From Mustelus asterias (lineage: Eukaryota): a stretch of 64,000 bases of DNA. The notes under the pieces were generated by a model. The model was given only the letters and a program-made list of their open reading frames with translations, did not search any database and had not been told where the DNA came from. The stretch lies in NCBI RefSeq assembly GCF_964213995.1, contig NW_027590119.1, positions 868,001 to 932,000 of the forward strand. Reading direction: 5' to 3'. The stretch's first letter is position 1, and every line of letters begins with the position of its first letter. Both the position numbers and the translations under genes were made by a program. This document shows positions 1,774 through 60,158 of this stretch, piece after piece.

Positions 1774-1779
1774 AGGGCT

Positions 1780-2865: not shown

Positions 2866-3849
2866 TACATTGCTGATGAGAATTTTAATTTACTGACTTG
2901 GGAATTAGTTCTCGGGAATAGTCAATCTGAAAATGACCATTAAAATGTGTTTTTAATTTACCCCATAATGCCAGATTTCAGTTTGCATTTCAAAATTGAA
3001 TTGAGAATGTCTGGGAGCAAATGGTAAAATGAGGTTTGAGACACCAGCTGCAATTATTTTCTGTGACTGATGATACCTTTGTGCCTGTGCAGGAGGTCAT
3101 TCCCCTGGTGTTGTGGCACAAATAAAATGGAGCCTTTCCTCGGAACAGGCCCATGTTAATGGTCACCGTGGTGTTTCATTGGTGAGCAGAGCACATGTGA
3201 CTATTGTGGTAACAACAGAGTCAGTGGGGCTGCACGTCCCCTGCCTTGGAAGGAAAATAATTGACTCCTTGATTGTACTCTCAATCTGTACATGGTCTGG
3301 AGGACTGAATCCAGCTGGAGGGAGAGGGAGCTGGGCTCAGAGTGGAGATGGGACAATGAGTTTGATTTCAGCTCAGGGACAATAGAGAGTGTGGGATGGG
3401 GATTACAGCTCAAGATAAATAAGATGGAGAAATGTTTCGTGGAAACTGAAATTGTCTGTTCTCAAGTAATTTTTTAAAACTCTTTTTGCAGGGAACTACA
3501 AGAGGAGGATTCACAGACAGGAAACTGAAACTAAACTTCAGATCAAAGTCTGACAGAGCCATTCGATTCATCATGACCTGAATATGATTGCTTTTGACAG
3601 TGGAGGGAGAAATCATTCCCTGTTTTGTCAGTGGGAGAAAATTTCAAAATTCAATGTGACAGAAAAAGAACTGAGACACACATACACACACACACTCCAG
3701 TGAACTGACTGTGAATCGAGCTTTAACCAGTAACACAGCCTGAAAAACATCACACCATTCACAGTGGGGAGAAACCATACACATGGTGTATATGTGGATG
3801 AGGCTTCAACTAATCATCCAACCTGGAGAGACAGAAGGACACCAGCACC

Positions 3850-4776
3850 GTGGACAAACCGTGGAAATGTGAGGATTGTGGTAAAGGATTCAATCATCCA
3901 TCCCGGTTGGAAACCCATCGACACGGTCACACTGGGGCTGGGAAAATGGAGAAACCATGGAAATGTGATGATTGTGGTAAAGGATTCAATTATCCATACT
4001 TGCTGGAAAACCATAGACACAGTCACACTGGAGAGAGGCCATTCATCTGTTCTGTGTGTGGGAAAGGATTCACTACCTCATCCCACCTGCTGTTACACCA
4101 GCGAATTCACACTGAGGAGAGGCCGTTCAGCTGCTCCACCTGTGGAAAGGGGTTCTCATGTTCATCCAACCTCAGTGCACATCAGCGAGTTCACACTGGG
4201 GAGAGATCGTTCACCTGCTCCTTGTGTGGGAAGGATTTTGCTGGGCCATCCGGTCTTTGGTCACACCAGCGAATTCACACAGGAGAGAAGCCATTCACCT
4301 GTTCTGTGTGTGGTAAGAGATTCACTCTGTCATCTAACCTGCTGTCACACCAGCGAGTTCACACAGAGGAGAGACCGTTCAGCTGCACTTCCTGTGGAAA
4401 GAGGTTCAGGTCTTCATCCAACCTCAGTGCACACAGGCGAGTTCACACTGGGGAAAGGCCGTTCACCTGTTCCACGTGTGGGAGGGAATTCACCAATTCA
4501 TCCGGCCTCCTGTCACATCAGTGAATTCACACTGAGGAGAAGCCATTTATTTGCACATACTGTGGAAAGAGTTTCAGGCAGTTATCAATCCTCACTGCAC
4601 ATCAACGCACTCACACTGGGGAGAGACCATTCACTTGCTCCATGTGTGGGAAGGGATTCACTCAGTCTGGCAGCCTGCATTTACACGAGCTCACCCACAC
4701 TGGGGAGAGGCCATTCACCTGCTCTGTGTGTGGGAAGGGATACACTCGGTCATCCCACTTGCTGACACATCTGTAA
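3850..4776 (+). pseudogene. C2H2 zinc-finger gene 1: 11 fingers, in-frame stops in fingers 8 and 11; ATG at 3946
   Basis: CxxC...HxxxH repeats with TGE(R/K)PF linkers; TGA at 4522-4524 (HQ*IH) and TAA at 4774-4776; the reading frame continues through the first stop. Confidence 0.85.
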
Positions 4777-9000: not shown

Positions 9001-10967
9001 ATATTCGGGTCTGGGGGATAATGTTCACTGTTTTATATTCGGGCCTGGGGGGGATAATGTTCACTGTTTTATATTCGGGTCTGGGGGATAATGTTCACTG
9101 TTTTATATTCGGGTCTGGGGGGGATAATGTTCACTGTTTTATATTCAGGTCTGGGGGGGGATAATGTTCACTGTTTTATATTCGGGTCTGGGGGATAATG
9201 TTCACTGTTTTATATTCGGGTCTGGGGGGGATAATGTTCACTGTTTTATATTCGGGTCTGGGGGGCATGATGTTCACTGTTTTATATTCGGGTCTGGGGG
9301 GGATAATGTTCACTGTTTTATATTCGGGTCTGGGGGATAATGTTCACTGTTTTATATTCGGGTCTGGGGGGGATAATGTTCACTGTTTTATATTCGGGTC
9401 TGGGGGATAATGTTCACTGTTTTATATTCGGGTCTGGGGGTGATAATGTTCACTGTTTTATATTCGGGTCTGGGGGGAATAATGTTCACTGTTTTATATT
9501 CGGGTCTGGGGGGGATAATGTTCACTGTTTTATATTCGGGTCTGGGGGATAATGTTCACTGTTTTATATTCGGGTCTGGGGGGGACAATGTTCACTGTTT
9601 TATATTCGGGTCTGGGGGGGATAATGTTCACTGTTTTATATTCGGGTCTGGGGGATAATGTTCACTATTTTATATTTGGGTCTGGGGAAGAATGTTCACT
9701 GTTTTATATTCGGGTCTGGCAGATAATGTTCACTGTTTTATATTCGGGTCTGGGGGGGATAATGTTCACTGTTTTATATTCGGGTCTGGGAGATAATGTT
9801 CACTGTTTTATATTCGGGTCTGGGAGATAATGTTCACTGTTTTATATTCGGGTCTGGGGGGGATAATGTTCACTGTTTTATATTCGGGTCTGGGAGATAA
9901 TGTTCACTGTTTTATATTCGGGTCTGGGGGGGATAATGTTCACTGTTTTATATTCGGGTCTCGGGGATAATGTTCACTGTTTTATATTTGGGTCTGGGGG
10001 GGATAATGTTCACTGTTTTATATTCGGGTCTGGGGGATAATGTTCACTGTTTTATATTCGGGTCTGGGGGGGATAATGTTCACTGTTTTATATTCGGGTC
10101 TGGGAGATAATGTTCACTGTTTTATATTCGGGTCTGGGGGGGATAATGTTCACTGTTTTATATTCGGGTCTGGGAGATAATGTTCACTGTTTTATATTCG
10201 GGTCTGGGGGGGATAATGTTCACTGTTTTATATTCGGGTCTGGGGGGATAATGTTCACTGTTTTATATTCGGGTCTGGGGGATAATGTTCACTGTTTTAT
10301 ATTCGGGTGTGGGGGATAATGTTCACTGTTTTATATTCGGGTCTGGGGGATAATGTTCACTGTTTTATATTCGGGTCTGGGGGGGATAATGTTCACTGTT
10401 TTATATTCGGGTCTGGGGGGGATAATGTTCACTGTTTTATATTCGGGTCTGGGGGGAGAATGTTCACTGTTTTATATTCGGGTCTGGGGGATAATGTTCA
10501 CTGTTTTATATTCAGGTCTGGGGGGATAATGTTCACTTTTATATTCGGGTCTGGGCGGGGGGGATAATGTTCACTGTTTTATATTCGGGTCTGGGGGGGA
10601 TAATGTTCGCTGTTTTATATTCAGGTCTGGGGGATAATGTTCACTGTTTTATATTCGGGTCTGGGGGAGAATGTTCACTGTTTTATATTTGGGTCTGGGG
10701 GGGATAATGTTCACTGTTTTATATTCGGGTCTGGGCGGGGGGGATAATGTTCACTGTTTTATGTTCGGGTCTGGGGGATAATGTTCACTGTTTTATATTT
10801 GGGTCTGGGGGATAATGTTCACTGTTTTATATTTGGGTCTGGGAGATAATGTTCACTGTTTTATATTCGGGTCTGGGGGGGATAATGTTCACTGTTTTAT
10901 ATTCGGGTCTGGGGGGGATAATGTTCACTGTTTTATATTCGGGTCTGGGGGGGATAATGTTCACTGT
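6059..10967. repeat. Minisatellite, ~34-36 bp unit, ~140 copies
   Basis: Unit ATAATGTTCACTGTTTTATATTCGGGTCT(G)5-10, highly homogeneous. Confidence 0.98.
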
Positions 10968-11939
10968 CTGGGGTTTGTGAGCTCGGGTTGATTCTGCCGA
11001 CGGTGCATTCTCGGTTGTCAGAGCTCTCATTAAAAGCCCTAATTTCCAGTCAGTGACTGAGTTGTCTCTGATGGGATGGAGAATCAGAGTGGGGGTAATG
11101 TGCTTCATGGACAGCGATGGGTTGGAATGAGTATAAAATAAACCCGGACTACACCAGGTAATTGTGAGAATATTAAAACCATCACAAAAAAATCATAGCA
11201 CCATGTTGGAAAACAGAATACTTTGGCTCAATCTTTGATCAATTTTGTTTGATTCAATATTTTGAGTGGCTTGTTGGATTGCTGGTTATTTTCTAACGGC
11301 AGCTCAGCACCATCATTTTGACCATAAACTCGGCCCTGGCGACTGCTGCATTTTTCCAGCACCTTCTGTTTTAATTCTAAGTGGAACCTTAATATCTGCT
11401 TAGTACACAGGCCAATTTATCTTTCTGGGGTGAGTGTGTCTGAGAGGTATGCAACTGGAAAACATTTTCCATTCACCTCCTGCATTGCTGCAGTATATAT
11501 AGATTGTTCTCACTCTGCCAGCAGGGCTGTGGGATTAATTGGATAGATCTTAAAGACAGCCCGACTGGGCAGGATGAGCCAAATGGTTTCCATCTGTGAT
11601 GTATCATTCCATAAAACAGAATATTCAGCATCAGGAGAAAGAAAGTGAAAGAAACCAGTCTCTGTGGGATTTACCCAACCAGTGTGAGCACCTTCAGGAG
11701 AGCAAAGAGAGGGGAGGAAACCAGTGGGAAAAGTTTTAAAAACTCGGGGTATTCCCACAGGAGAACACTGGTTTAAATCAATTTTATAAATGGAGAATGG
11801 CAGCGCACAAATTCCGAGGAATGCATTTAAAAAAATTATTTGATCTTAATTGCACAAGATAATTTTCTATTATTGTCTTTGACAATGACGCCGTTAATTC
11901 CCAGGTGCCCCTGCGGGTATGAAAGTCCTATTCATTCCA

Positions 11940-12300
11940 CAGGAGTCCATTGCGCAGGCGCAATGCTATATCTGGAGCGTGCGCAGTGTCACTTTGCTTG
12001 GAGCCCTGTGAGTGCGGGAGCTGCTTTTTTCAACGGGTGAGTCGGTGGGGCTGCGGGAGAAATGGAGCCGGGAGTCGGGGGAGGGAGGGAGCTATGGCTT
12101 CACAAACATCCGCTGTAGGCCGCACGGCCCGAATAAGACCCTGCAGGTCCCGGGTTTACAGCTCCCAGGCTTTTATCCCGGGATCAGGCCCCAGTTATCG
12201 GCCGCCATCTTGTTTCAGCGGGGAAGGAGAGCGCATGCGCTGCTGTCGGTGGCGGGTCACAATGGGCGTGGTTTCAGGGGCTGGTTCAGAACCTCTGTCT
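11940..12300 (+). promoter_or_regulatory. CpG-island promoter-like region, probably of ZNF gene 2
   Basis: TGCGCAGGCGCA (~11951), YY1 GCCGCCATCTT (12201), NRF1 GCGCATGCGC (~12231), high CpG. Confidence 0.6.
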
Positions 12301-12311
12301 TCAGAGGGACA

Positions 12312-12548
12312 ATAGAATCATAGAAACCCTACAGCACAGAAAGAGGCCATTCGGCCCATCGAGTCTGCACCGACCACAATCCCACCCAGGCCCCAGCCCC
12401 ATATCCCTACATATTTTACCCACTGATCCCTCTAATCTATGTATCCCAGGACACTCGGGGGCAATTTTTTTAGCATAGCCAATCAACCTAACCCGCACAT
12501 CTTTGGACTGTGGGAGGAAACCAGAGCACCCGGAGGAAACCCTCGCAG
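12312..12548 (-). mobile_element. HE1-like SINE, 5'-truncated
   Basis: SINE core and tail on the minus strand. Confidence 0.8.
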
Positions 12549-12930
12549 AGAGGGGAGGGTCGGGATGGCGACCTCCTCGTGAACCTGGGCCTGGCGAAGC
12601 GTGCCATTTACCGGTCCAGGCAGCGGGCGATCGAGGGGGCCGTCCATCCTGACTGTCTGCCCCTCTACTGCGACTACGTTCACGGCCAGGTGTCCCTGGA
12701 GAGGGAATATGCGGTGTCTACAGGCACGGTTGACGCCTTCTGCCCCCGTTGGGCACCGCAGGGATTGGGGTGCGTTATCGACCCGAATAATCACACTATG
12801 ATTTGATGTTTTTAAGTTTCCTTTGTACTTTGATTTTTGTTCGGGCTGTTCCCCCTCTTTTTGGGGAGCTGCCCCTTTTACTTTGTCCTGATTTAACTTG
12901 AGTTTGTTCATTTGGTTTGACCTTAAAAAA
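12549..12930 (+). mobile_element. Tx1/L1-like LINE 3' end
   Basis: DLLVNLGLAKRAIYRSRQRA...AFCPRW resembles Tx1-clade ORF2 C-termini; the same T-rich 3' tail recurs at 41870-41960 and, diverged, at 23248-23390 (-). Confidence 0.55.
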
Positions 12931-12934
12931 GGCC

Positions 12935-13347
12935 AACATCTGTGAGTAAAATACTTTTTCTTTTCTCCCCCTTTCCATTTCTTTTCTCATTCTGGGGGAA
13001 ATTGGGGACTTGCAGCAACTGAAGGGAAAGGAAGTGAATCCAGTTGGTATGTTCCACACATTGTTAGTCCAGTCAGATAGACATATATCTGTCTGGGAGC
13101 CTGCATGGAGGTTTCCAGCTCTCTCTGTCCAGGACAGGAAGCAGTGAGCATGGATCTATCAATCAGCCTCAATCAGAGGGTGAATATTAGATACAGCAGA
13201 GTGACAATGGAGGGAGAGTGTGTGGGATGGAGATTTGCAGCTCTTGGGGAATGAGAGTGGAAAGAATGTTCCATAGAAACTAGAATTGTCTGTTCTGAAT
13301 TTCTATCCTGTATTGACAGTGATAACCTTTGTAAACTCCTTTTACAG
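12935..13347 (+). other. Conserved non-coding intron module of the ZNF family (donor GTGAGT 12942, acceptor TTTACAG 13347)
   Basis: Closely similar copies at 20465-20801(-), 23015-23247(-), 24000-24110 plus 25455-25625, 33630-33860(-), 34668-34890, 42015-42155 plus 44468-45180, 56290-56698 and 58660-59074. Confidence 0.75.
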
Positions 13348-13530
13348 GACATCAGAAGTTGAGGATTTTACAGACAGAAATCTCAAACCAAACATCACAT
13401 CAACATCTGACAGAGTCACTCAATTCATCGGGACCTGAATATCTTCGGTCTTTGAATCCAGAAGGAGAAATGTTTCTCTGTTCTGTCGGCTTTCGCAGTC
13501 TTTAAACATCAGTGTGACTGGAACAGGACT

Positions 13531-13562
<32 letters not shown>
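13531..13562. repeat. (CA)n microsatellite
   Basis: About 16 CA units inside the fossil leader. Confidence 0.95.
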
Positions 13563-13565
<3 letters not shown>

Positions 13566-13719
13566 AACTGAGATTTTCCCATGCAGTGACTGTGGAAAGA
13601 GCCTCCCAGTTACACAGCCTGAAAAAATATTGCACCATCACAGCAGGGCACTATAATCTTGTTCCGTGTGAGACTTCAACTGATGGTCAAACCTGGAGCA
13701 ACACAAGGACACCTGCACC

Positions 13720-14562
13720 ATGGAGAAACCGTGGAAATGTGGGGACTGTGGGAAGGGTTGCAAAACCCCCTCTGAGCTGCAAATTCATCGACGTATTCAC
13801 ACCGGAGAGAAGCCGTACACCTGTTCTGTGTGTGGGCAGAGATTCACTCGGTTATATCATCTGCAGCGACATCGGCTGGTTCACACTGGAGAAAGAGCAT
13901 TCATCTGCTTTGAGTGTGGGAACGGATTCGCTCATTTACCCGATCTGCAGAGACACCAGCGCGTTCACACTGGAGAGAGACCATTCACCTGCTTGGTGTG
14001 TGGGAAAGGATTTATGCAGTTATCCAATCTGTCGAAACACAAAGTCACTCACAGCAATGAGAAACCCTTTAAATGCTCTGACTGTGGAAGTGGTTTCAAA
14101 AGCTCTCGGGAACTGACGATCCACCAGCGGATTCACACTGGGGAGAGACCGTTCAGCTGCTCTCACTGTACAAAGACATTTAGAACATCATCCCACCTGC
14201 GGGAGCACCAGCGAATTCACACCAGGGAGAGACCGTTCACCTGCTCTGTGTGTGGGAAGGGATTCACTCATTCATCCAGCCTGCTGAGTCACAATCTCAC
14301 TCACACCCAGGAGAGACCCTTTAAATGCTCTGACTGTGGCAGTGGTTTCAAAAGTTCTCGGGATCTGGTTATCCACCAGCGCAGTCACACTGAGGAGAGA
14401 CCATTCAGCTGCTCTCACTGCACAAAGAGATTTAGAACATCATCCAGCCTGCGGGAGCACCAGCGAGTTCACACTGGGGAGAGACCGTTCACCTGCTGTT
14501 TGTGTGGGAAGGGATTCACTCAGTCATCCAGCCTGCGGAGACACCAGCGAGTTCACGAATGA
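13720..14562 (+). CDS. C2H2 zinc-finger protein (gene 2), 10 fingers, 280 aa
   Basis: Intact ORF MEKPWKC...HQRVHE with Kozak GCACCATGG. Confidence 0.92.
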   Translation: MEKPWKCGDCGKGCKTPSELQIHRRIHTGEKPYTCSVCGQRFTRLYHLQRHRLVHTGERAFICFECGNGFAHLPDLQRHQRVHTGERPFTCLVCGKGFMQLSNLSKHKVTHSNEKPFKCSDCGSGFKSSRELTIHQRIHTGERPFSCSHCTKTFRTSSHLREHQRIHTRERPFTCSVCGKGFTHSSSLLSHNLTHTQERPFKCSDCGSGFKSSRDLVIHQRSHTEERPFSCSHCTKRFRTSSSLREHQRVHTGERPFTCCLCGKGFTQSSSLRRHQRVHE

Positions 14563-19348: not shown

Positions 19349-20107
19349 TCACTCGTGAACTTGTTGGTGTCTCAGCAGCTGGGATGAAACTCTGAAACCC
19401 TTCCCACACTGAGAGCAGGTGAATGGTCTCTCTCCAGTGTGAACTCGCTGGTGTGTCTGCAGACTGGATGACTGAGTGAATCCCTTCTCACACTTAGGGC
19501 AGGTGAACGGCCTCTCCCCAGTGTGAACTCGCTGGTGTGTCTGCAGACTGGATGAGGCAGTAAATCCCTTCCCACACTGACAGCAGGTGAACGCTCTCTC
19601 TCCAGTGTGAACTCGCTGGTGTGTCCACAGGCTGGAAGAGTTAGTGAATCCTTTCTCACACTGAGGGCAGGTGAATGGCCTCTCTCCGGTGTGAACTCGC
19701 TGGTGTGTCTGCAGACTGGATAATTGATTGAATCCCTTCCCACACACAGTGCAGGTGAACGGGCTCTCCCCAGTGTGAACTCACTGGTGTGTCCGCAGGG
19801 TGGATAACTGACTGAATCTCTTCCCACACACACAGCAGGTGAATGGCTTCTTCCCAGTGTGAACTCGCTGGTGTTTCTGCAGACTGGATGACTGAGTGAA
19901 TCCCTTCCCACACACACAGCAGGTGAATGGCCTCTCCCCAGTGTGAACTAGTTGGTGTGTCCACAGTTCAGATGACTGAGTGAATCCCTTTCCACACACA
20001 CAGCAGCTGAATGGCCTCTCCCCAGTGTGACTGCGTCGATGAATTTCCAGCCGAGATGGGCACATGTATCCCTTCCCACAGTCCCCACATTTCCACGGTT
20101 TCTCCAT
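19349..20107 (-). pseudogene. C2H2 zinc-finger gene 3: 9 fingers with a premature stop in finger 4
   Basis: MEKPWKC start; TGA at 19783-19781 (HQ*VH); the same frame continues to HQQVHE*. Confidence 0.88.
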
Positions 20108-20801
20108 GGTTCGGGTCCTTGTGACTCTCCAGGTTAAACAATCAGTTAAATCTCACACAGAACACGGGTGCAGTCTCTCCCCGCTGCGAATGCTGCGATG
20201 TATTTTCAAGCTGTGTAACTGGTTAAAGCTCTTTCCACACTCAGTGCACTGGAACACTCTTGCTCAGGTGTGTGTGTGTCTTGGTGCTTTTCCAGTCACA
20301 CAGATGCTTAAAATCTTCAGAAGCTGACAGAACAGAGAAACATTTCCCCTTCTCGATTCAAAGGTCAGTGATATTCAGGTCCAGATGAATTGAATGATCC
20401 TGTCAGATTTGATGTGACATTTGGTTTAAGATTTCTGTCTGTAAATTCTCACTTTCTGATATTCTGTAAAAGGAATTTACAAAATTCATCAGTGTCAGCA
20501 CAGGATAGAAATTCAGAACAGACAATTCTAGTTTCTATGAAACATTCTTTTCTCTCTCATTCCCTGTGAATCTCCATCCCACACACTCTCCCTCCATTCT
20601 CACTCTGCTGTATCTAATATTCACCCTCCCAATTCTCCTGAAGGTGCTGATTGAGGCTGATTGACAGATCCATGCTCACTGCTTCCTGTCCTGGACACAG
20701 CTGGAAATCTCCATGCAGGCTGCCAGACAGATGTATGTCTATATGATTGGACCAACAATGTATGGATTATATAGACTGGACTCACTTCCTTTCCCTTCAG
20801 T

Positions 20802-22250
20802 GGCTAAGGGTGGACAAGTCACCAGGACCCAATGAACTGCACGCTAGCTTTTTAATGGAGGTTGCTGAAGAGATTGTGGAGAATTTTGTTGAAATTTTTC
20901 GTAACTTGCTAGATTCCGGGAGAGTATCAGAAGATTGGCAATCAGCCAATGTGACTCCCTTGGTCAAAAAGGGAGAAAGGCAGAAGGCAGGGAACTATAG
21001 GCCAGTTAGTTTAACATCTATTATTGGCAAGACGCTGGAGTCAATAATCAAAGAGCAAATAGCTAATCATTTAGGAAGGCTGAATATAATCAAACCTCGT
21101 CAACATAGTTCTATGAAAGATAAATCATGTTTGACAAATTTGCTTGAATTGTTTGAGGATGTAAGAAGGAGGGTAGATCGAGAGAAATCTGTACTTGTAG
21201 TTTATTTAAAAAGGGCGCCACGGCAGCACAGTGATTAGCACTGCTGCTTCACAGTGCCAGGTACCTGGGTTCAATCCTGGCCTTGGGTGACAGGCTGTGT
21301 GGAGTATGCGCATTCTCTCCATGTCTGTGTGGATTTCTGAGTGCTCCAGGTTCTTCCCACAGTCCAAAGATGTGCGGGTTAGATTGATTGGCCATGCTAA
21401 ATTGCCCCTTTGTGTCCCAGTAGAAGTAGATTAGGTGGATTAGTGGGGTAAAAATGTAGGGCTACAGGGATAGGGCCTGGGAAAGATGAGTCAAGAGTTG
21501 GGGAAGATGCAATAAAGTCACCCCTCTGTCTTCAAAACGTGGCAAATGGAGTTTAAAGTGGGGAAGTGTGAGGTCATGTATTTCAGTAGGAGGAATCAAC
21601 AGGGAGATTATCTAAATAGAGAGAGGCTGCCGGTGAGTGAAGTACAGCGGGATCTTGGTGTTCTTGTGCATGAATCACAAAAAGCTAGCAGGCAGGTTCA
21701 CACAATAGGTAAAAAGGAAAATGGCATTTTGGCTTTTGTTGCAAAGGGATTGGAGTTTAAAAACAGGGAGGTTTTGTTGCAACTGTACAGTGTGTTGGTG
21801 ATGCCTCACCTGGAATAGTGCATAGAGTTTTGATCCCCTTACCTAAACAAGGATTTAGTAACATTGGACATAGTCCAAAGGACATTCACCAGGCTAATTC
21901 CTGGATGGGAGGGTTGTCCTATCAAGAGGGAGTAAATTGTCAAGGTCTGAGTTCCTTGAAGTTTTGAAGACAAAGGGGTTACTGAAACATATAAGATCCT
22001 GAGGGGGCTTGACAGGGTAGATGGTGAGATATTTTCACGAGTGGGAGAGTCTCAAACAAAATAAATACCTCATTGAATGTTTTTAAGGCAAAGATAGATA
22101 CATTTTTGAACAGTTAAGGAATTAAGGGTTATGGTGAGCGGGCGGGTAAGTGGAGCTCAGTCTACGAAAAGATCAGCCGTAATCTTATTGAATGGCAGAG
22201 CAGGCTTGAGGGCCAGATGGCCTACTCCTGCTCCTAGTTCTTATGTTCTT
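20802..22250 (+). mobile_element. Decayed CR1/HER1 LINE with a nested HE1 SINE (21212-21495)
   Basis: KSPGPNE...WQSANVTPLVKKGERQKAGNYRPVSLTS, then MEFKVGKCEVM...RDLGVLVH; adjoins the ZNF intron module. Confidence 0.88.
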
Positions 22251-22699: not shown

Positions 22700-23247
22700 A
22701 AAGTTGAGACCTCATCCACACACACAACACGAGTAGAGTCTCTCCCGCTGTGAATGCTGTAATATTTTTTCAGGCTCTGTAACTAGTTAAAGCTCTTTCC
22801 ACAGTCAGTGCACTGGAACACTCTCATTCGAGTATGTGTGTGTCTCGGTGATTTGCCACTCCCATTGATGTTTAAAACTTTCCGAAGCAGACGGTACAGA
22901 GAAACATTTCTTCTTCTGGATTCAAAGGCCGATGATAATCAGATCCCGATGAATTGAGTGAGGACAGGACGTTTGGTTTGAGATTTCTGTCTGTAAATCC
23001 TCATCTCCTGATATCCTGCAAAATAAGTTTACAAAAGTCATCACTCAGTACAGGATAGAAATTCATAACAGATAATTTTAGTTTCTAAGGAACATTCTTT
23101 CCCCTCTCATTCCACAAAAGCTGTGAATCTCCATCCCACACACTCTCCCTCCATTCTCACTCTGCTGTATCTAATTTTCACCCTCCCAATTCTCCTGAAG
23201 GTGCTGATTGAGGCTGATTGACAGATCCATGCTCACTGCTTCCTGTC
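22700..23247 (-). pseudogene. ZNF relic: intron module and fossil leader with no finger array
   Basis: Minus strand RVFQCTDCGKSFN*LQSLKK...YSCCVCG, homologous to the other leaders; ends before the MEKPW position. Confidence 0.7.
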
Positions 23248-23390: not shown

Positions 23391-23394
23391 ATCG

Positions 23395-25445: not shown

Positions 25446-26233
25446 TGATTTCTGTGCTGGACAGGAAGCAGTGAGCATGGATCTGTCAATCAGCCTCAAT
25501 CAGCACCTTCAGGAGAATTGGGAGGGTGAATATTAGATACAGCAGAGTGAGAATGGAGGGAGAGTGTGTGGGATGGAGATTTACAGCTTTTGGGGAATGG
25601 GAGAGGAAAGAATGTTCATTAGAATCTTAGAATTGCTGCATCTTATCAACCGTCCCTGAGCTTTCACAATGAATCCCACTTCTGAGGACACCCTTATCTC
25701 TGACTTGTCCGTACTGCCGGCAGTCTCACAAAGCAGCTGCCTGTGTGCTGATACGGGAGGCCCTGCTCGGCAAGTTTAATGCTCCATGACTGTGTCTTTA
25801 ATGAACGCTCCATAAACTAAAAATGTAGATTTGAATTTCGATCGTATTCTGAATTGCGATTTTTTTTCTAAATTGACTTACAGGATATTAGACAAGGAGA
25901 AATCAGACAAAAATCTCCAACATCACATCGAGATCTGACAGAGTGACTCGATTTCTTGGGACCTGAATATCATTGGCCTTTGAATCTAACAGGAGAAATG
26001 TTTGTTTGGCCTCTTGGCTTCAAAAGATTGTAAACATCGCTGTGACGAGAAATGCACTGAGATACACACACCCGAGTGAGAGTGTTCCAGTGCACTGAGT
26101 GTGGAAAGAGCTTTAACCAGTTATACAGCCTGAAAATGCATCACAGCATTCACAGCGGGGAGAGACTGTACCCGTGTTCTGTGTGAGATTTAACTGATTG
26201 TTTAACCTGGAGAGTCACAAGGACACCGGCACC

Positions 26234-27187
26234 ATGGAGAAACCGTGGAAATGTGGGGACTGTGGGAAGAGATTCGGGTTCCCATCTGAGCTGGAAATTC
26301 ACCACCGCAGTCACACTGGGGAGAGACCATTCACCTGCTCTGTGTGTGGGAAGGGATTCACTCATTTATCCAGCCTGCAGAAACACAATCTCACTCACAC
26401 CAATGAGAGACCATTTAAATGCTGTGACTGTGGGAGTGGTTTTAAAAGCTCTCAGTATCTGATGTCCCACCAGCGCATTCACACTGAGGAGAGACCGTTC
26501 AGCTGCTCTCACTGCTCAAAGAAATTTAGAACTTCATGCAACCTGCAGATTCACCAGCGAATTCACACCAGGGAGAGACCGTTCACCTGCTCTGTGTGTG
26601 GGAAGGGATTCACTCATTCATCCAGCCTGCTGAGTCACAATCTCACTCACACCAATGAGAGACCCTTTAAATGCTCTGACTGTGGGATCAGATTCAAAAG
26701 TTCTCAGGTACTTAGGGTCCACCAGCGCACTCACACTGAGGAGAGACCGTTCAGCTGCTCTCACTGCACAAAGAGATTTAGAACTTCATGCAACCTGCAG
26801 ATACACCAGCGAGTTCACACTGGGGAAAGGCCGTTCACCTGCTCTGTGTGTGGGAAGAGATTCACTCAGTTATCCAGCCTGCTGAAACACAAAGTCACTC
26901 ACACCAATGAGAGACCCTTTAAATGCTCTGACTGTGGGAGCGGATTCAAAAGCTCTCAGGGACTGGTGTCCCACCAGCGCATTCACACTGAGGAGAGACC
27001 ATTCAGCTGCTCTCACTGCACAAAGAGGTTTAAAACGTCATCCAACCTGCAGGAACACCAGCGAGTTCACACTGGGGAGAGACCATTCCCTTGCTCTGTG
27101 TGTGGGAAGGGATTCACTCAGTCATCCAGCTTGCTGAGACACAAAGCCACTCACTCCAAGGAGAGCCCCTTTAAATGCTCTGCCTGA
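26234..27187 (+). CDS. C2H2 zinc-finger protein (gene 4), 11 complete fingers
   Basis: Kozak ATG at 26234 (MEKPWKC); ORF ends at a TGA within finger 12. Confidence 0.88.
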
Positions 27188-32435: not shown

Positions 32436-33278
32436 TCACTCGTGAACCTGTTGGTGTCTCAGCAGCTGGGATGAAACTCTGAATCCCTTCCCACACTGAG
32501 AGCAGGTGAATGGCCTCTCTCCAGTGTGAACTCGCTGGTGTGTCTGCAGATTGGATGACTGAGTGAATCCCCTTCCACACTGAGAGCAGGTGAATGGTTT
32601 CTCCCCAGTGTGAACTCGCTGGTGTCTCCGCAGGGTGGATGACAGAGTGAATCGCTTCCCACACTGAGAGCATGTGAACGGTTTCCCCCCAGTGTGAACC
32701 CGCTGGTGTATCTGCAGATTGGATGACTGACTGAATCCCTTCCCACACTGAGAGCAAGTGAACGGTTTCTCCCCAGTGTGAACTCGCTGGTGTTTCTGCA
32801 GGGTGGATGACTGAGTGAATCCCTTCCCACACTGAGAGCAGGTGAATGGCCTCTCCCCAGTGTGAACTCGCTGGTGTGACCGTAGGCTGGATAAGTCAGT
32901 GAATCCCTCCCCACACTGAGAGCAGATGAATGGCCTCTCCCCAGTGTGAACTCGCTGGTGTGTCTGCAGCTGGGATAACCGAGTGAATCCCTTCTCACAC
33001 TGAGAGCAGGTGAATGGTTTCTCCCCAGTGTGAACCTGCTTGTGTCTCCACAGAGCGGATGCCTGAGTGAATCCCTCCCCACACTTAGAGCAAGTGAACG
33101 GCCTCTCCCCAGTGTGAACTCGCTGGTGTTGCTTCAGGATGGATAACCGAGTGAATCCCTCTCTACAGTGAGAGCAGATGAACGGCCTCTCCCCAGTGTG
33201 GCTGCGCCGATGAGCTTCCAGCAGGGATGGGGTTCTGTATCTCTTCCCACAGTCCGCACATTTCCATGGTTTCTCCAT
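32436..33278 (-). CDS. C2H2 zinc-finger protein (gene 5), 10 fingers, 280 aa
   Basis: Intact ORF from Kozak ATG 33278 (MEKPWKC) to HQQVHE*. Confidence 0.92.
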
Positions 33279-34269
33279 GGTGCAGGTGTCCTTGCCTCTC
33301 CCTTGGGTGGACAATCAGTTGAAGCCTCGTTCAAACACAGAACACGAGTACAGTCTCTCCCCGCTGTGAATGGTGTGATATTTATTTAGGCTGTGTAACT
33401 GGTTAAAGCTCTTTAGTCAGTGCATTGGAACACTCTCACTCGAGTGTGGCAGTGTGTTGGTGCTTTTCCAGTCACACTGATGTTTGAAATCTTTTCAAAT
33501 CGACAGACTGGACAAACGTTTCTCCTTCTAGATTCAAAGGCCGATGATATTCAGCTCCCAAGGAATATGACTCTGTCAGATCTCGACGTGACATTTGAGA
33601 TTTCGGAATGCGATTCCTCTTTCAATATCCTGTAAAATGAGTTTATTAAAGCCATCACTGTCAGAACAGGATAGAAATTCAGAAGACACAATTCCAGTTT
33701 CTATGGAACATTATTTCCTCCCTCATTTCCCAAAAGCTGTAAATCTCCATCCCACACACTCTCCCTCCATTCTCACTCTGCTGTATCTAATATTCACCCT
33801 CCCAATTCTCCTGAAGGTGCTGATTGAGGCTGATTGACAGATCCATGCTCACTGCTTCCTCTCCAGCACATAGAAATCATAAGAAATCGGAGCTGCAGTT
33901 GGCCATTCAGCCCATCGAACTGCCTCAATCATTGATTGAGAATTGGCTGATCGACCTCAGCGTGGGGTGCATAATTCCAAAACTACGCACATACTTGAGT
34001 GAGGAAATCCCTCCTCATCTTAACTTTCTCTCCATTTTCCTACCTGTTCCCCATAACGCTTGACGCCTTTATCAATCAAAAATCAGTTTAACTCACCCTG
34101 GAATATATTCAATGACTCTCACCCTCCACTCATCCCTGTGGAAAAGAAATCCAAACACTAATGACTCTAATAGGCAAGAGACGAATGACTGGAAATATCT
34201 AAGGTAGATACAGTACAATATGAGTTCTGTCTGAAGTTCAATCTTCATTCAGAGAGGAGCAGCTTTGCT

Positions 34270-36490: not shown

Positions 36491-36905
36491 TGATTCTGAT
36501 TTGATTTATTATTATGTGTATTAGTATACAGTGAAAAGCATTGTTTCTTGCGCGCTATACAAAGCATACCGTTCATAGAGAAGGAAAGGAGAGGGTGCAG
36601 AACGTAGTGTTACAGTCTTAGTAAGGTGTAGAGAAAGATCAACTTAATGCAATGCAAGACCATTCAATAGTCTGTTGGCAGCAGGGAAGAAACTGTTCTT
36701 GAGTCAGTTGGTACTTGACCTCAGACTTGTGTATCTTTTTCCCGACAGAAGAGAGTATGTCTGGGGTGTGTGAGGTCCTTAATTATGCTAGCTGCTTTGC
36801 CGAGGCAGAGGGAAGTGTAGACAGAGTCAATGGATGGGAGGCTAGGTTGTGTGATGGATTGGGCTACATTCACGACCTTTTGTAGTTCCTTGTGGTCTTG
36901 GGCAG
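36491..36905 (-). mobile_element. Rex1/Babar-like LINE 3' fragment truncating gene 6
   Basis: QDHKELQKVVNVAQSITQPSLPSIDSVYTSLCLGKAASIIKD; (CAAAT)-type tail; same family as 43105-43687. Confidence 0.75.
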
Positions 36906-37286
36906 AATGAATCCCTTCCCACACACAGAATAGGTGACAGGCCTCGCCCCAGTGTGAACTCGATGGTGTCTCAGCAGGTGGGATGACCAAGTGAATCCCC
37001 TCCTACACACAGTGCAGGTAAATGGTTTCTCCCTAGTGTGAACTTGCTGATGTACAATGAGGTTGGATGAATACCTAAACATTTTCCCACAGGATGTGCA
37101 GCAGAATAGCTTAACCTCAGCGTGAGCTTGCAAGTGTGACTGGAGGCAGAATGAGTCAGCAAATCCCTTCCCACACATGGAGCAGGTGAATGGTCTCTCT
37201 CCTGTGTGACTGCGTCGATGCTTTTCCAGCTGGGATGGGTAATTGAATCCCTTCCCACAGTCCTCACATTTCTGTGGTTTCTCCAT
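36870..37286 (-). pseudogene. C2H2 zinc-finger gene 6: 4 fingers, fifth finger cut by a LINE
   Basis: MEKPQKC start; the array reads into LINE sequence at ~36905. Confidence 0.8.
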
Positions 37287-37451
37287 GGTATCAGGGTCCT
37301 TGTGTCTCTCCAGGTTGGATGATCAGTTGAAATCTCGTCCACACACAGAATAAGTGTACAGTTTCTCCTCACTGAATGATGTGATGTTTTTTTCAGACTG
37401 TGTAACTGGTTAAAGCTCTTTCCACAGTCAGTTCACTGGAACACTCTCACG

Positions 37452-37480
37452 TGTGTGTGTGTGTGTGTGAGAGAGAGAGA
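37452..37480. repeat. (GT)n(GA)n microsatellite
   Basis: Seen directly; same leader position as the (CA)n of gene 2. Confidence 0.9.
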
Positions 37481-37764
37481 CTCGGTGCTTTTCCAGTCAC
37501 ACGAATTCTTCAAATCTCTACCCAAGTCAAATCAGAACAAACATTTCTCCTTCCACATTTAAAATCTGATGATATTCAGATCCTGATGAATTGAGCCACT
37601 CTGTTTGATCTTGATGTGATGTTTGGTTTGAACTTTTGGCTGTAAATCCTCACTTCCAATATTCTGCAAAAGTTTACAAATTTAATCGCTGTCAGAACAG
37701 GATAGAAATTCTGAACAGACAATTCCAGTTTCTCTGGAACATTTTTTCCTCTCTTTTAAATGTC

Positions 37765-40090: not shown

Positions 40091-40567
40091 GACATGAGTG
40101 GGACAGGAATTTGCAACTTTGGGGATCAAGAGATCAAAGTGTTCCATAGGAACTAGTATTTCCTGTTCTTCCGGTGATGACTTTGTAAACTCTTTTTGCA
40201 GAGAATTAGAACGGGAGGATTTGCAGACGAGAAACTCAAACCAAGTATCACGTAAAGAGCCGACAGAGTCACTCGATTAATCAGGATTTGAATATCGTCA
40301 GTCTTCGAATGTGGAAGGAGAAATGATTGTCTGTTCTGCCCGTGGGAAAAGGTTTGAAATATCAGTGTGACTGGAAAAACACCGAGACACACACACACCC
40401 GAGAGAGAGTGTTCCAGTGAACTGACTGTGGAAAGAGCTTGAACCAGTTACACAGCCTGAAAAAACATCACACAGTTCACAGTGACGAGAAATTGTCCAC
40501 GTGTTCTGTGTGTGAATGAGGCTTCAACTGATCATCCAACCCGGAGGGACACAAGGACACCAACACC

Positions 40568-41326
40568 ATGGAGAAACCGTGGAAATGTGGGGAGTGTGGG
40601 AAAGGATTCAATTCTCCATCCCTGCTGGAAATTCATCAGCGCAGTCACACTGGGGAGAGGCCGTTCATCTGCTCAGAGTGTGGGAAAGGATTCACTCAGT
40701 CATCCCAATTGCTAACACACCAGCGGTTTCACACTGGGGAGAGGCCATTCATCTGCTTGGAGTGTGGAAAGGGATTCACTCAGTTATCTGACCTGCGGAG
40801 ACACCAGCGAGTTCACACTGGAGAGACACAGTTCACCTGCTCTGAGTGTGGGAAAGGATTCATTCAGTCATCCAATCTGCTGAAACACCAGCAAGTTCAC
40901 ATTGGGGAGAGACCATTCACCTGCCCTGTATGTGGGAAAGGATTCACTGGGCCCTCTGATTTGCTAAGTCACCAGCGAATTCACACTGAGGAAAAGCTGT
41001 TCAGCTGCACTTCCTGTGGAAAAAGATTCAGGTCTTCAGCCCAGCTCAGTGTACACCAGCGAGTTCACACTGGGGAGAAGCCATTCATCTGCTCTGAGTG
41101 TGGGAATAAATTTGCTCAGTTATCTCACCTGCAGACACACCAGCGAACACACACTGGAGAGAGACCATTCACCTGCTCTGAGTGTGGGAACAAATTCACT
41201 TCTTCATCGCACCTGAGGAGACACCAGCATGTTCACACAAGGGAGAGGCCATTCACCTGCTCCGAGTGTGGGAAGGGATTCACTCAGTCTGGCAGCCTGC
41301 TGAGGCACCAACGAGTTCACAATTAA
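40568..41326 (+). CDS. C2H2 zinc-finger protein (gene 7), 9 fingers, 252 aa
   Basis: Intact ORF MEKPWKC...HQRVHN. Confidence 0.92.
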
Positions 41327-44978: not shown

Positions 44979-45536
44979 TCTGTCAATCAGCACCTTCAGG
45001 AGAATTGGGAGGGTGAATATTAGATACAGCAGAGTGAGAATGGAGGGAGAGTGTGTGGGATGGAGATTCACAGCTTTTGGGGAATGAGAGAAGAAACAAT
45101 ATTATAGAGAAAGTAGAATTGTCCATTCTGAATTTCTATCCTGTACTGACAGTGATTATTTTTGTAAACTCCTTTCACAGGATACCAGAAGGTGAGGATT
45201 TACAGACAGAAATCTCAAACCAAGCATTAAGTCAAGATCTCTCAGAGTCACTCGATTCATTGGGACCTGAATGCTATCGGCCTTTAACTCTCCAAGGAGA
45301 AATGTTTCTCTCTTCTGTCTACTTCTAAAGACTTTAAACATCAGTGTGACTGGGATGTTACTGAGAGACACACATCCGAGTGACAGTGTTCCAGTGCACT
45401 GAGTGTGGAAAGAACTTTAACCAGTTACACAGCCTGAAAATACATCGCAGCATTCACAGCGGGAGAGACTGTACCCGTGTTCTGTGTGAGATTTAACTGA
45501 CTGTTTAACCTGGAGAGTCACAAGGACACCCGCACC

Positions 45537-46805
45537 ATGGAGAAACCGTGGAAATGTGGGGACTGTGGGAAGGGATTCAGGTTCCCATTTCAGCTGGAAA
45601 TTCATCAACGCAGTCACACTGGGGAGAGACCATTCACCTGCTCTGTGTGTGGGAAAGGATTCACTCAGTTATCCACTCTGCGCGCACACAATCTCACTCA
45701 CACCCGGGAGAGACCCTTTAAATGCCCTGACTGTGGGAGTGGTTTCAAAAGCACTGCAGAACTTGTAACCCACCAGCGCATTCACACTGGGGAGAGACCG
45801 TTCACCTGCTCTCACTGCTCAAAGGGATTTAAAAGGTTATACACTCTGCAGAGACACCAGCGAGTTCACACTGGGGAGAGACCATTCACCTGCTCTGTGT
45901 GTGGGAAAGGATTCGCACAGTCATCCAGCCTGCTGAGTCACAATATAACCCACACCAATGAGAGACCCTTTAAATGCTCTGACTGTGGGAGCAGCTTCAA
46001 ACGTGCTGCGGATCTGAGGGACCACCGGCGCAATCACACTGAGGAGAGTCCGTTCAGCTGTTCTCACTGCACTAAAAAATTTAGAACATCATCCACACTG
46101 CGGAAACATGAACGAGTTCACACCGGGGAGACACCTTTCACCTGCACCATGTGTGGGAAGGGATTCACTCAGTTAAGCCATCTCTGGAGACACCAGCGAG
46201 TTCACACGGGGGAAAGGCCATTTACCTGCACTGTGTGTGGGCAGGGATTCACTCAGTTAAACAATCTCCTGAGACACCAGCGAGTTCACACTGGGGAGAG
46301 GCCATTCACCTGCACCATGTGTCGGCAGGGATTCACTCAGTCATCCGACCTGCAGATACACCAGCGAATTCACACTGGGGAGAGGCCATTCACCTGCTCT
46401 GTGTGTGGGAAAAGATTCAATGATTCATCCACCCTGCGGGCACACCAACATATTCACACCGGGGAGAGGCCATTCAAATGCTCTCTGTGTGGGAAGGGAT
46501 ACGTTCACTCTTCCGACCTGCAGACACACCAGCGAATTCACACTGGGGAAAAACCGTTCAGTTGCTCTCACTGCACAAAGAGGTTTAATAGGTCATCCGA
46601 CCTGCTGGCACACCAGCGAGTTCATACTGGGGAGAGACCGTTCAGTTGCTCTCATTGCACAAAGAGGTTTCATCGGTCATCTGACCTGCTGAAACACCAG
46701 CCAGTTCACACTGGGGAGAAACCGTTCACCTGCTCCATGTGTGGGAAGGGATTCACTCAGTCATCCAGCCTACGGGTACACCAGCGGGTTCACACCGGGG
46801 AGTGA
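45537..46805 (+). CDS. C2H2 zinc-finger protein (gene 8), 15 fingers, 422 aa
   Basis: Intact ORF; stop in the last linker (TGE*), followed by a residual 16th finger to 46883. Confidence 0.93.
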   Translation: MEKPWKCGDCGKGFRFPFQLEIHQRSHTGERPFTCSVCGKGFTQLSTLRAHNLTHTRERPFKCPDCGSGFKSTAELVTHQRIHTGERPFTCSHCSKGFKRLYTLQRHQRVHTGERPFTCSVCGKGFAQSSSLLSHNITHTNERPFKCSDCGSSFKRAADLRDHRRNHTEESPFSCSHCTKKFRTSSTLRKHERVHTGETPFTCTMCGKGFTQLSHLWRHQRVHTGERPFTCTVCGQGFTQLNNLLRHQRVHTGERPFTCTMCRQGFTQSSDLQIHQRIHTGERPFTCSVCGKRFNDSSTLRAHQHIHTGERPFKCSLCGKGYVHSSDLQTHQRIHTGEKPFSCSHCTKRFNRSSDLLAHQRVHTGERPFSCSHCTKRFHRSSDLLKHQPVHTGEKPFTCSMCGKGFTQSSSLRVHQRVHTGE

Positions 46806-56290: not shown

Positions 56291-57048
56291 ATATCTATGA
56301 GTAAAACACTTTCTTTTCTCATTCTGGGGAAAATTGGGGACTTGCAGCAACTGAAGGCAAAGGAAGTGAATCCAGTCTGTATATTCCACACATTGTTAGT
56401 CCAGTCAGATAGACATATATCTGTCTGGCAGCCTGCATGGAGATTTCCAGCTCTCTGTGTCCAGGACAGGAAGCAGTGAGCGTGGATCTGTCAATCAGCC
56501 TCAATCAGCACCTTCAGGAGAATTGGGAGGGTGAATATTAGATACAGCAGAGTGAGAATGGAGGGAGAGTGTGTGGGATGGAGATTCATGACTTTTGGGG
56601 AATAAGAGAGGAAAGAATGTTCCATAGAAACTAGAATTGTCTGTTCTGAATTTCTATCCTGTAATGATACTGATGATTTTTATAAACGTCTTTTACAGAA
56701 TATCAAAAGGTGAAGATTTATAGACAGAAATCTCAAACCAAACGTCACATCAATATCTGACAGAGTCACTCAATTCATCAAGTCCTGAACATCATCAGCC
56801 TTTGTATCTAGAAGGAGAAACATTTCTCTGTTCTTTTTGCTTCTGGAGATTTTAAACATCAGCGTGACTGAGAATTTACCAAGTTTCACGCACACACCTG
56901 AGTGAGAGTGTTCCAGTGCACTGACTGTCGAAAGAGCTTTAACCAGTGAAAAAAACATTGCGGCATTCACAGCGGGGAGAGACTGTACCCATGTTCTGTG
57001 TGAGATTCAACATTGTTTAACCTGGAGAGTCACAAGGACACCCGCACC

Positions 57049-58143
57049 ATGGAGAAACCGTGGAAATGTGGGGATTGTGGGAAAAGATTCAGGTTCCCAT
57101 CTCAGCTGGAAACTCATCGACGCAGTCACACTGGGGAGCGGCCGTTCACCTGCTCTGTGTGTGGGAAGGGATTCTCTGATTCATCCAACCTGCAGACACA
57201 CCAGCGAGTTCACACAGGGGAGAGACCATTCCCCTGTTCTGATTGTGGTACCGGATTTACTCAATTATGCCATCTGCAGTCACACCAGCAAATTCACACT
57301 GTGGAGAGACCATTTACCTGTCCTGTGTGTGGGAAAGGATTCTCTCACTGTCCCCATCTGCAGACACACCAGCGAGTACATTCCGGGGAGAGGCCGTTCA
57401 ACTGTCCTGTGTGTGGGGAAGGATTCACTTGGTTATCCAGCATGCGCAGACACAAAGTCAGTCACACCAATGAGAGACCCTATAAATGCTCTGACTGTGG
57501 AAGAGATTTTAAAAGTTCTCAGGTTCTGATGTCCCACCAGCGCATTCACACTGAGGACAGACCGTTCAGCTGCTCTCACTGCTCAAAGAGGTTCAGAAAG
57601 TCATCCAACCTGCGGGTACACCAGCAGGTTCACATCAGGGAGTGGCCATTTACATGCTCTGAGTGTGGGAAAGGATTCAGTACATCATCCCAACTGCTGA
57701 CACACCAGCGAGTTCACACCGGGGAGAGACCATTCACCTGCTCTGAATGTGGGAAGGGATTCACTCAGTTGCCCAATCTCCAGAGACACAAAGTCAGTCA
57801 CACCAATGAGAGACCCTTTAAATGCTCTGACTGTGGGAGCGGCTTCAGAAGCTCTCAAGATCTGATGTCCCACCTGCGCATTCACACTGAGGAGAGACCG
57901 TTCAGCTGCTCTCACTGCTCAAAGAGATTTAGAACATCATCCTATCTGCTGACACACCAACGAGTTCACACTGGGGAGAAACCATTCACTTGCTCTGACT
58001 GTGGGAAGGGATTCACTCAGTTAACCAATCTGCGGACACACCAGCGAGTTCACACTGGGGAGAGGCCATACAACTGTTCTCAGTGCGGGAAGGGATTCAC
58101 TCAGTCATCCCATCTGCTGAGACACCAGCGAGTTCACAAGTGA
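57049..58143 (+). CDS. C2H2 zinc-finger protein (gene 9), 13 fingers, 364 aa
   Basis: Intact ORF from Kozak ATG 57049 to HQRVHK*. Confidence 0.93.
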
Positions 58144-58646: not shown

Positions 58647-59432
58647 AAGCCTTAAAAGAGGCCAACATCTTTTCCTCCCCTTTCCATTTCTTTTCTCATT
58701 CTGGGGGAAATTGGGAACTTGCAGCAACTGAAGGGAAAGGAAGTGAATCCAGTCTGTACATTCCACACATTGTTAGCCCAGTCAGATAGACATATATCTG
58801 TCTGGCAGCCTGCATGGAGATTTTCAGCTCTCTGTGTCCAGGAGAGGAAGCAGTGAGCATGGATCTGTCAATCAGCCTCAATCAGCACCTTCAGGAGAAT
58901 TGGGAGGGTGAATATTAGATACAGCAGAGTGAGAATGGAGGGAGAGTGTGTGGGATGGAGATTTACAGCTTTTCGGGAATGAGAGAGGAAAGAATGTTCC
59001 ATAGAAACTAGAATAGTCTGTTCTGAATTTCTATCCTGTGCTGACATTGATGAATTTTTCAAACTCGTTTACAGGATATGAGAAGGTGAGGATTGACAGA
59101 CCAAAATCTTGAAACAAACATCACATCAGCATCTGACACCCTCACTCAATTCATCGGACCTGAATATTATCGGCCTTTGAATCTAGAAGGAGAAATGTTT
59201 CTCTGTTCCGTCTGCGAAAACAGGTCTTTAATATCAATGTGACTGGAAAAGCAGCAAGATACAGATACTCCCGAGTGAGAGTGTTCCAGTGCACTGAGTG
59301 TGGAAAGAGCTTTAACCAGTTACACAGCCTGAAAGTACATCGCAGCATTCACAGCAGGGAGAGACTGTACCCGTGTTCTGTGTGAGATTTAACTGATTGT
59401 TTAACCTGGAGAGTCACAAGGACACCTGCACC

Positions 59433-60158
59433 ATGGAGAAACCATGGAAATGTGGGGACTGTGGGAAGAGATACAGAGCCCCCTGTAAACTGGAAATTCA
59501 TCGACGCAGTCACACCGGGGAGAGGCCATTCACCTGCTCTGTGTGTGGGAAAGGATTTACGCAGTTATCTAACCTGTCAAAACACAAAGTCACTCACAGC
59601 CAGGAGAGACCCTTTAAATGCTCTGACTGTGGGAGTGGTTTCAAAAGCTCTCGGGAACTGATTATCCACCAGCGCATTCACACTGGGGAGAGACCATTCA
59701 GCTGCTCTCACTGCGCAAAGACATTTAGAGCATCATCCCACCTGCGGATACACCAGCGAGTTCACACTGGGGAGAGACCGTTCACCTGCTCTGTGTGTGG
59801 GAAGGGATTCACTCAGTCATCCAGCCTGCAGAACCACAATCTCACTCACACCAATGAGAGACCGTTTAAATGCTCTGACTGTGGGCGTGATTTCAAAAGC
59901 TCTCGGGAACTGATGCTTCACCAGCGCACTCACACTGGGGAGAGACCGTTCAGCTGCTCTCACTGCTCAAAGAGATTTAGAACATCATCCCACCTGCGGA
60001 TACACCAGCGAGTTCACACTGGGGAGAGACCATTCACTTGCTGTGTGTGTGGGAAGGGATTCACTCAGTCACCAGCCTGCGGGCACACCAGCAAGTTCAC
60101 AAGTGATGACAGGTTGGATTCTGCTGTTATTCCTGCCATTAATCACATCCAGGACTGA
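59433..60158 (+). CDS. C2H2 zinc-finger protein (gene 10): 7 fingers plus a frameshifted eighth
   Basis: MEKPWKC at 59433; 1-nt deletion at ~60071 (TCA-CC vs TCATCC) shifts the last finger. Confidence 0.82.

Follow-up and report, generated by a model that had tools for sequence, protein, structure and literature searches.

A shark zinc-finger gene family with a fossil coding leader and a predicted start codon in place of a linker glycine

The window analysed here, a 64,000-nt stretch of Mustelus asterias DNA, contains ten C2H2 zinc-finger (ZNF) genes with a [M/V][E/D]KP[W/Q]KC start. Their arrays consist of tandem C-x2-C-x12-H-x3-H fingers joined by HTGE[KR]P linkers, the pattern of poly-ZF proteins. 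A YAG splice acceptor is found 350–377 nt 5' of the start site in all ten genes. The homologous start site, which the first-pass annotation had read as ATG throughout, is ATG in nine of the ten; the gene at 3850 carries GTG and has a second MEKPW start at 3946. Two KPWKC fingers are present at 3850 and 3946, the second with its own ATG. The reference gene is the one with its ATG at 13720, in which the family-signature finger, with Pro at +1 and Glu at +5, comes first in the open reading frame (ORF). Feature coordinates are given in Table 1.

Table 1. Features of the 13720 gene and its paralogues, in window coordinates.
Feature	Position	Strand	Remark
Predicted splice acceptor AG, terminal exon	13346..13347	+	Same site as in the open relative
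Fossil leader, predicted 5' UTR	13348..13719	+	Old 40-codon linker and three dead C2H2 fingers
Upstream ATG (old Met41 of the exon)	13470..13505	+	11-codon uORF, TAA at 13503-13505
Common stop TGA, old finger 1	13515..13517	+	Helix position +3; open relative TGG (Trp)
Second common stop TGA, old finger 3	13681..13683	+	36 nt 5' of the ATG
Predicted new start, ACC-ATG-G	13717..13723	+	ATG in place of the linker Gly codon
ORF, 280 aa	13720..14562	+	10 C2H2 fingers, no other domain
CpG-rich candidate promoter	11930..12300	.	
GCGCATGCGC in candidate promoter	12231-12240		
AAGATGGCGG motif in candidate promoter	11930..12300	-	
Candidate donors GT for the 13720 gene	12037 and 12942		From sequence only
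Paralogue, leader and GTG 3850	3492..4524	+	Second MEKPW start 3946
Paralogue, leader and ATG 20107	19349..20463	-	ORF ends after 3 fingers; further fingers in another frame
Orphan (eleventh) leader	22702..23014	-	No ATG or array
Paralogue, leader and ATG 26234	25884..27187	+	11 fingers
Paralogue, leader and ATG 33278	32436..33629	-	10 fingers
Paralogue, leader and ATG 37286	36870..37663	-	4 fingers
Paralogue, leader and ATG 40568	40202..41326	+	9 fingers
Paralogue, leader and ATG 45537	45181..46805	+	15 fingers
Paralogue, leader and ATG 57049	56699..58143	+	13 fingers
Paralogue, leader and ATG 59433	59075..60158	+	7 fingers

The region between acceptor and start site, hereafter the leader, can be aligned among all ten genes. 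With stops read as X, the leader of the 45182 gene matches the Pfam zf-C2H2 family (E 2.7e-5), and a leader elsewhere in the genome (locus L060) contains three zf-C2H2 stretches (E 8e-11). The proposal that the ~350 nt between acceptor and ATG are a decayed coding exon in all ten genes is confirmed by the alignment and the Pfam matches. The finger-1 TGA is present in 10/10 window leaders and the finger-3 stop in 9/10. Copy-specific frameshifts, which the first-pass annotation had emphasized, are indeed present, but the key lesions are these common stops, to which the frameshifts were added; a single nonsense change held in common is taken as the founding event.

Several other elements were observed around the genes. 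A tandem array (35–36 nt unit, ~140 copies, 92% matches, strong GC skew) occupies 6058-10967, just 5' of the candidate promoter of the 13720 gene. The promoter motifs GCGCATGCGC and AAGATGGCGG are NRF1- and YY1-like. A SINE is located at 12310-12550 and a Tx1-like 3' fragment at 12490-12900. The 250 nt 5' of the acceptor (13080-13347 and its equivalents) are near-invariant in seven of the ten genes, and this block may contain a 66-nt exon (AG...GG/GTGAAT) in frame with the old linker. A CpG-rich stretch at 23045-24100, with the same conserved upstream block inverted on its two flanks, sits between the orphan leader (minus strand) and the 26234 gene (plus strand) in a head-to-head arrangement, and is likely a two-way promoter common to both. 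The cluster is interrupted by LINE reverse-transcriptase ORFs of up to 464 aa at 48649-55955 and 20747-21818.

An open relative of the family is present as a single-copy gene at G000:C1:169.14 Mb (the C1 gene); the flanking stretches searched contained no second finger gene. Its leader-equivalent stretch is open (376 codons), and the exon runs unbroken through the linker, fingers 1–3, AGEPLYQC and nine more fingers. It is colinear with all ten window genes at 67–72% DNA identity, which agrees with the description of the leader as a linker plus three former fingers. Codon 56 is TGG and codon 122 is GGG in the C1 gene, where the family has TGA and ATG. The similarity of the C1 gene to the family is highest in fingers 1–2 (152/171 columns) and lower in finger 3 (46/72 columns); because the C1 gene differs at the junction of fingers 3 and 4, it is a sister of the parent gene rather than the parent itself. 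Similarity of intron sequence between the family and the open gene continues for ~100 nt 5' of the acceptor (64/95 columns), and an origin as a retrocopy was rejected on this basis.

The glycine form of the junction, HT-GEKPWKC, occurs at 42 genome sites. Of the 30 sites fetched, three distinct sites lie in truncated-type genes as internal repeats; all others come from a sister subfamily, here labelled MEGKS-type, with linker DNA CAC-ACN-GGN-GAG-AAA-CCR-TGG. This subfamily, found in sharks and skate, shares the acceptor, linker, finger 3 and signature finger 4 with the truncated family; in contrast to the latter, its fingers 1–2 are deleted rather than decayed and the glycine is kept, so that it starts at the linker Met and proceeds through finger 3 to HT-GEKPWKC. 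The Gly form is also present in horn shark, basking shark, catshark and skate models, and its occurrence in these species and in the sister subfamily indicates that Gly is ancestral. The identification of the ATG with the linker Gly codon thus holds (GGG in the open gene, HT-GEKPWKC in the sister subfamily). The Kozak context ACC-ATG-G, also noted earlier, derives its -3 A and +4 G from the linker Thr and Glu codons. In a tree of finger 3–5 DNA (23 truncated, 7 sister and 1 open sequence; unrooted, trait columns included), a branch with 100/99 support sets the truncated copies apart from all others. The common TGA, the open relative and the Gly-type sister subfamily together support the descent of the family from an N-terminally truncated ancestor, as first proposed.

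A subgroup of the sister subfamily, with ~45 copies (L242-L247; G000:C71:10116233-10118796), has kept the linker open and also has a candidate first exon of 33 codons, for which no Pfam match was obtained. The ATG of this candidate exon lies inside a AAGATGGCGG motif, and a related sequence is found in the window at 12104-12240 on the minus strand.

The 3.68-Gb genome was searched for further copies. The exact new-start pattern occurs at no fewer than 2,067 sites, a count that may include haplotype duplicates on unplaced contigs and misses diverged copies, and 2,138 sites match with any triplet at the ATG position; reversed control patterns gave 0 matches. Two leader DNA searches returned 4,104 and 4,512 first-look candidates, of which the best 40 were scored in each. 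Copies are clustered on C71, C23, C12 and many unplaced contigs, and near-identical copies (94–100% identity) are numerous on the latter. An exact 23-mer around codon 56 carries TGA at 722 genome sites and TGG at 11, ten of which are otherwise broken (broken copies or a fragment). Stops were found in 148 of 150 scored matches to a read-through leader query, and likewise in 148 of 150 to the linker of the open gene, the exceptions in the latter case being the gene itself and one promoterless fragment. Two candidate open copies were rejected: the second stop-free match, at C23:3956447, retains the TGA and is open only when the frame is shifted, and the match on C11 is a promoterless fragment.

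A sample of 74 full-length leaders was compiled from 864 kb of contiguous cluster DNA. None of these leaders is free of stops and frameshifts (0/74), whereas the next four fingers are free of both in 57/74; no open path from acceptor to ATG exists in either of two leader sets (0/74 and 0/83). Sampled copies retain the ATG in 62/74, the finger-1 TGA in 69/74, the acceptor AG in 68/74 and a finger-3 stop (TGA or TAA) in 62/74, while the old Met41 ATG is kept in 47/74 and lost in 27/74. The assertion that the arrays remain open thus applies to most copies but not to all, since in the window the 20107 ORF ends after three fingers and the 37286 ORF after four. At least five fingers follow the start site in 51/74 copies and fewer than five in 23/74. 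The 45 intact copies encode 5–22 fingers each, with five residues before finger 1, and their ORFs end within three residues of the last finger in 36/45. At the genomic level, the predicted products are bare finger arrays, in agreement with the first-pass annotation, and the family falls in the ZNF-only class, with neither an N- nor a C-terminal domain. That the leader is a molecular fossil of single origin is well supported by these comparisons.

The same start and stop can be followed into other sharks. MEKPWKC is found in models from Heterodontus, Carcharodon, Chiloscyllium and Mustelus, and only the Gly form in the single skate model examined; nine shark or skate models were picked by motif from 150 rows of a HMMER search that was dominated by long multi-finger proteins. 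Sharks are the source of the closest named proteins among the matches listed, and a search of the ESM Atlas gave generic chordate ZNF clusters only. Two sawshark models (P0218 and P0219) terminate at precisely FQTSV, which is the same stop, and horn shark model P0035 reads FKHQCDWKST in a shifted frame, which requires the TGA (the open gene would give QCGW). Sawsharks and horn sharks represent the two main shark branches. The finger-1 stop is therefore probably older than their split, and so likely predates the split of living sharks. On these models, the family ranges shark-wide, sharks being the group in which it was found. P0218 also fuses a histone H2A to the fossil linker, which suggests that family copies lie next to histone genes and that models were joined wrongly.

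Substitution patterns differ between leader and array, a comparison that the first-pass annotation had proposed. For 15 of 22 independent pairs, those with a distance below 0.2, the leader dN/dS is 1.08 (0.83–1.43), compared with 0.86 and 0.91 in the other two frames as controls; an uncorrected value of ~0.7 was rejected as a transition-bias artefact. Leader divergence between paralogue pairs is 11% versus 13.5% in the adjacent intron. The Cys and His codons of the array have a dN/dS of 0.01 (0.01–0.04), indicating that the zinc ligands are frozen. The ratio of dN at helix positions -1, 3 and 6 to array dS is 2.9 (1.9–4.4), 3.3 (1.8–5.3) and 2.3 (0.89–4.8) at three filters, with the interval at the strictest filter including 1. 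Finger shuffling or conversion could inflate this pair estimate. By these measures the leader evolves neutrally and the base-contact sites change fast. The combination of lineage-specific clusters and contact-site positive selection described for KRAB-ZFPs is thus found here (ratio 2.3–3.3) and fits the first-pass suggestion that the family could be a counterpart of the KRAB-ZNF expansion, but two near-identical young subfamilies (9/30 and 17/17 fetched loci) show no contact-site excess.

The open relatives bear on what the truncation removed. A CpG-rich stretch 1.75 kb 5' of the C1 gene contains a candidate first exon of 13 codons that would end in phase 2 and has no clear similarity to the window. 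Pfam searches of the coding strand over 25 kb upstream of the C1 gene identified LINE and LTR domains only, with no effector, KRAB or BTB domain, and a word-based protein search with its first 70 residues yielded no match at 206–658 aa and no orthologue in other species. An open-leader copy, of the kind that the first-pass annotation proposed to look for in chimaera and ray genomes, is thus present in this genome, though no Pfam effector was found within 25 kb upstream. Since the open relatives have only a short candidate first exon besides the linker, the truncation appears to have taken three fingers and a linker rather than a KRAB, SCAN or BTB domain, and the implied loss of such an effector is not upheld. 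Genome-wide, the KRAB profile PF01352 matched none of 76 candidates, although no positive control matched either. The SCAN profile gave at least 146 matches among 150 scored of 604 candidates; none of those listed lies on C71 or C87 or upstream within the C12 and C23 clusters, and on C68 a leader is followed 12 kb downstream by one match. The listed SCAN-like matches are scattered on large contigs, many with stops, and probably represent fragments of LTR gag, not SCAN-ZNF genes. For the window genes, an effector exon is judged absent by the frame argument below and these KRAB and SCAN searches only. A short acidic effector exon in frame, as in FiNZ or KRAB-like ZNFs, was not found, given the stops and the lack of a late acceptor.

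The first finger of the arrays differs from the remainder, with Pro at +1 in 98%, Glu at +5 in 91% and a helix charge of -1.2 versus +0.65 (44 versus 421 fingers). Positions -1 and +6 are mostly non-polar, and the same finger occurs in other sharks and in skate. It appears to be a poor fit for base reading; that it serves as a cofactor dock is a tentative suggestion, and rather doubtful. The signature finger is tandemly repeated in some copies, with up to five KPWKC fingers in L134 (G000:C16:92.886 Mb).

These data suggest the following history. The ancestral exon had the order linker-F1-F2-F3-HT-GEKPWKC-array. One copy would have acquired the F1 change TGG>TGA and the change GGN>ATG in the F3–F4 linker; both are the common state of the family, and their order is conjectural. 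The T-G-E linker already provides ACC at -3 and G at +4. A stop in a terminal exon escapes junction-dependent decay, and with both the stop and the array in the terminal exon here, the message would have escaped such decay. Ribosomes may then have reached the new ATG by leaky scanning or by re-initiation after short uORFs. The leader has since drifted neutrally, while the unit was amplified into clusters by duplication at the DNA level, with intron and acceptor kept. As KRAB and FiNZ families do, the arrays may have diversified at the residues that contact bases. In the absence of an effector, they would act by site occupancy or through a cofactor docked on the conserved acidic, Pro-containing first finger. 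An origin by truncation and Gly-to-ATG change is very probable. The complete reading, in which a shark family of ~2,000 copies, each with a fossil leader and a start at the linker-Gly ATG, encodes bare arrays that probably bind mobile-element DNA and dampen it, is given a probability of about 60%. For its functional part, in which the arrays act against mobile DNA, the basis is analogy together with the selection pattern, and the odds are roughly even. A bolder version, in which the nonsense and Gly-to-Met changes in the ancestor of living sharks produced their main transposon-silencing family, with the acidic finger 1 recruiting partners as KRAB does, is improbable.

The position of the start can be weighed against two other readings of the leader. 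In one, the leader is an intron that looks retained rather than 5' UTR, and a coding exon farther upstream, which might carry a new effector, joins in frame just ahead of MEKPW. RefSeq models P0012, P0013, P0115 and P0145 do join other exons in frame just before MEKPW; however, models of this kind chain several genes and LINE pieces, and other models (P0012, P0157 and P0179) begin at MEKPWKC. Such a splice would need an acceptor after the finger-3 stop; the final 40 nt of 45 leaders contain 157 AGs, none of which is a YAG with a pyrimidine tract, whereas the leader's own acceptor is YAG in 45/45. The ATG is kept at 2,067 of 2,138 sites, sawshark isoform models enter the leader start in the old frame, and two contigs bridge leader and array. 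These contigs, from two studies and other organisms and presumed to be RNA, span leader, ATG and array (X3 record 23, 13411-13905; X5 record 32, 13367-13865); four read runs of guessed RNA nature were compared, with splice joints masked by the SINE. This reading is accordingly very unlikely. In the other, the leader is retained as a regulator, such that the old N-terminus or the Met41 uORF, ending at the conserved TGA, tunes the output of finger protein. No other triplet of the leader is as constant as the TGA (69/74; median 46), leader divergence is slightly below that of the intron, and sawshark models translate upstream exons up to the TGA. Other triplets reach 62–66/74 among related copies, however, no codon-level selection is detected in the leader, and the Met41 ATG is lost in 27/74, leaving little room for this reading. 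Upstream ATGs occur in 42/45 leaders, mostly one to four each, with a median uORF of 11 codons; 16 uORFs overrun the main ATG, which could lower translation, and two extend the main ORF in frame. Initiation at ACC-ATG-G is highly probable.

A third alternative accepts the same origin and assigns the arrays another job (gene regulation, RNA binding, or a germ-line or antiviral role), or regards them as surplus from segmental duplication. The many near-identical copies on unplaced contigs, the fewer than five fingers in 23/74 sampled copies, the two young subfamilies without contact-site excess and the lack of an effector domain would fit this explanation. On the other hand, the zinc ligands are frozen (0.01–0.04), contact sites change at two to three times the silent rate among older paralogues, and ZNF and retroelement counts are correlated across animals according to the portion of PMC10547256 available. 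It is the less favoured explanation, although a real contender, and binding to mobile-element DNA by arrays started at the linker ATG is preferred.

Shark ZNF expansion and, in databases, MEKPWKC starts are already known; the fossil origin was not found in print. No description of the fossil leader or of the MEKPWKC start was encountered in the literature covered, to which most subscription papers did not belong. In the supplement of PMC10547256, in the part available, ORFs with at least five fingers number 703–3,586 per shark assembly, 1,223 in skate and 475 in chimaera; the main text contains no shark term, and supplement files 3–5, outside the present scope, may bear on shark families. Many shark RefSeq entries named "zinc finger protein 271-like", "850-like" or "uncharacterized" already begin or restart at MEKPWKC, and many shark RefSeq ZNF models are chimeras of several genes, in which no family definition or fossil-leader origin was found.

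Vertebrate poly-ZF expansions are usually explained by the gain of an effector (KRAB, SCAN, FiNZ). The present family of ~2,000 copies would have expanded after the loss of an N-terminus, with the event recorded in its 5' UTR. It offers a uniform target for the question of retroelement control in cartilaginous fish, which lack canonical KRAB-ZFPs, as one common start sequence could permit family-wide knockdown and one signature finger could serve as bait. A Kozak context is already built into any T-G-E linker, and the fossil leader and start may serve as a marker for mending chimeric shark gene models.

Like the KRAB-ZFPs of tetrapods (TRIM28/SETDB1 pathway), the shark family is clustered and lineage-specific, with fingers in one terminal exon; unlike them, it has no KRAB, and a fossil leader precedes its ORF, which begins within the finger exon. 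Fast change at helix positions -1, 3 and 6 is described for KRAB-ZFPs in the accessible part of PMC2604467, and KRAB-box families are reported as lost in cartilaginous fish in that of the whale shark paper (PMC8455134). The cyprinid FiNZ-ZNF (Wells et al. 2023, PMC10547256) and the ray-finned KRAB-like ZNFs (PMC11603059) also form clustered poly-ZF families of hundreds without canonical KRAB/TRIM28 and, as far as the available sections of these papers go, repress young transposons; they keep an in-frame upstream effector exon, whereas the common stops of the shark family cut off what lies upstream. The "ZNF-only" poly-ZF class, as presented in the sections of PMC3971581 and PMC2604467 available, resembles the shark family in having arrays without an annotated N-terminal domain, an absence attributed there to real lack, missed exons or deletions; neither main text mentions sharks. 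In the shark family, by comparison, the absence can be traced to one truncation common to ~2,000 copies.
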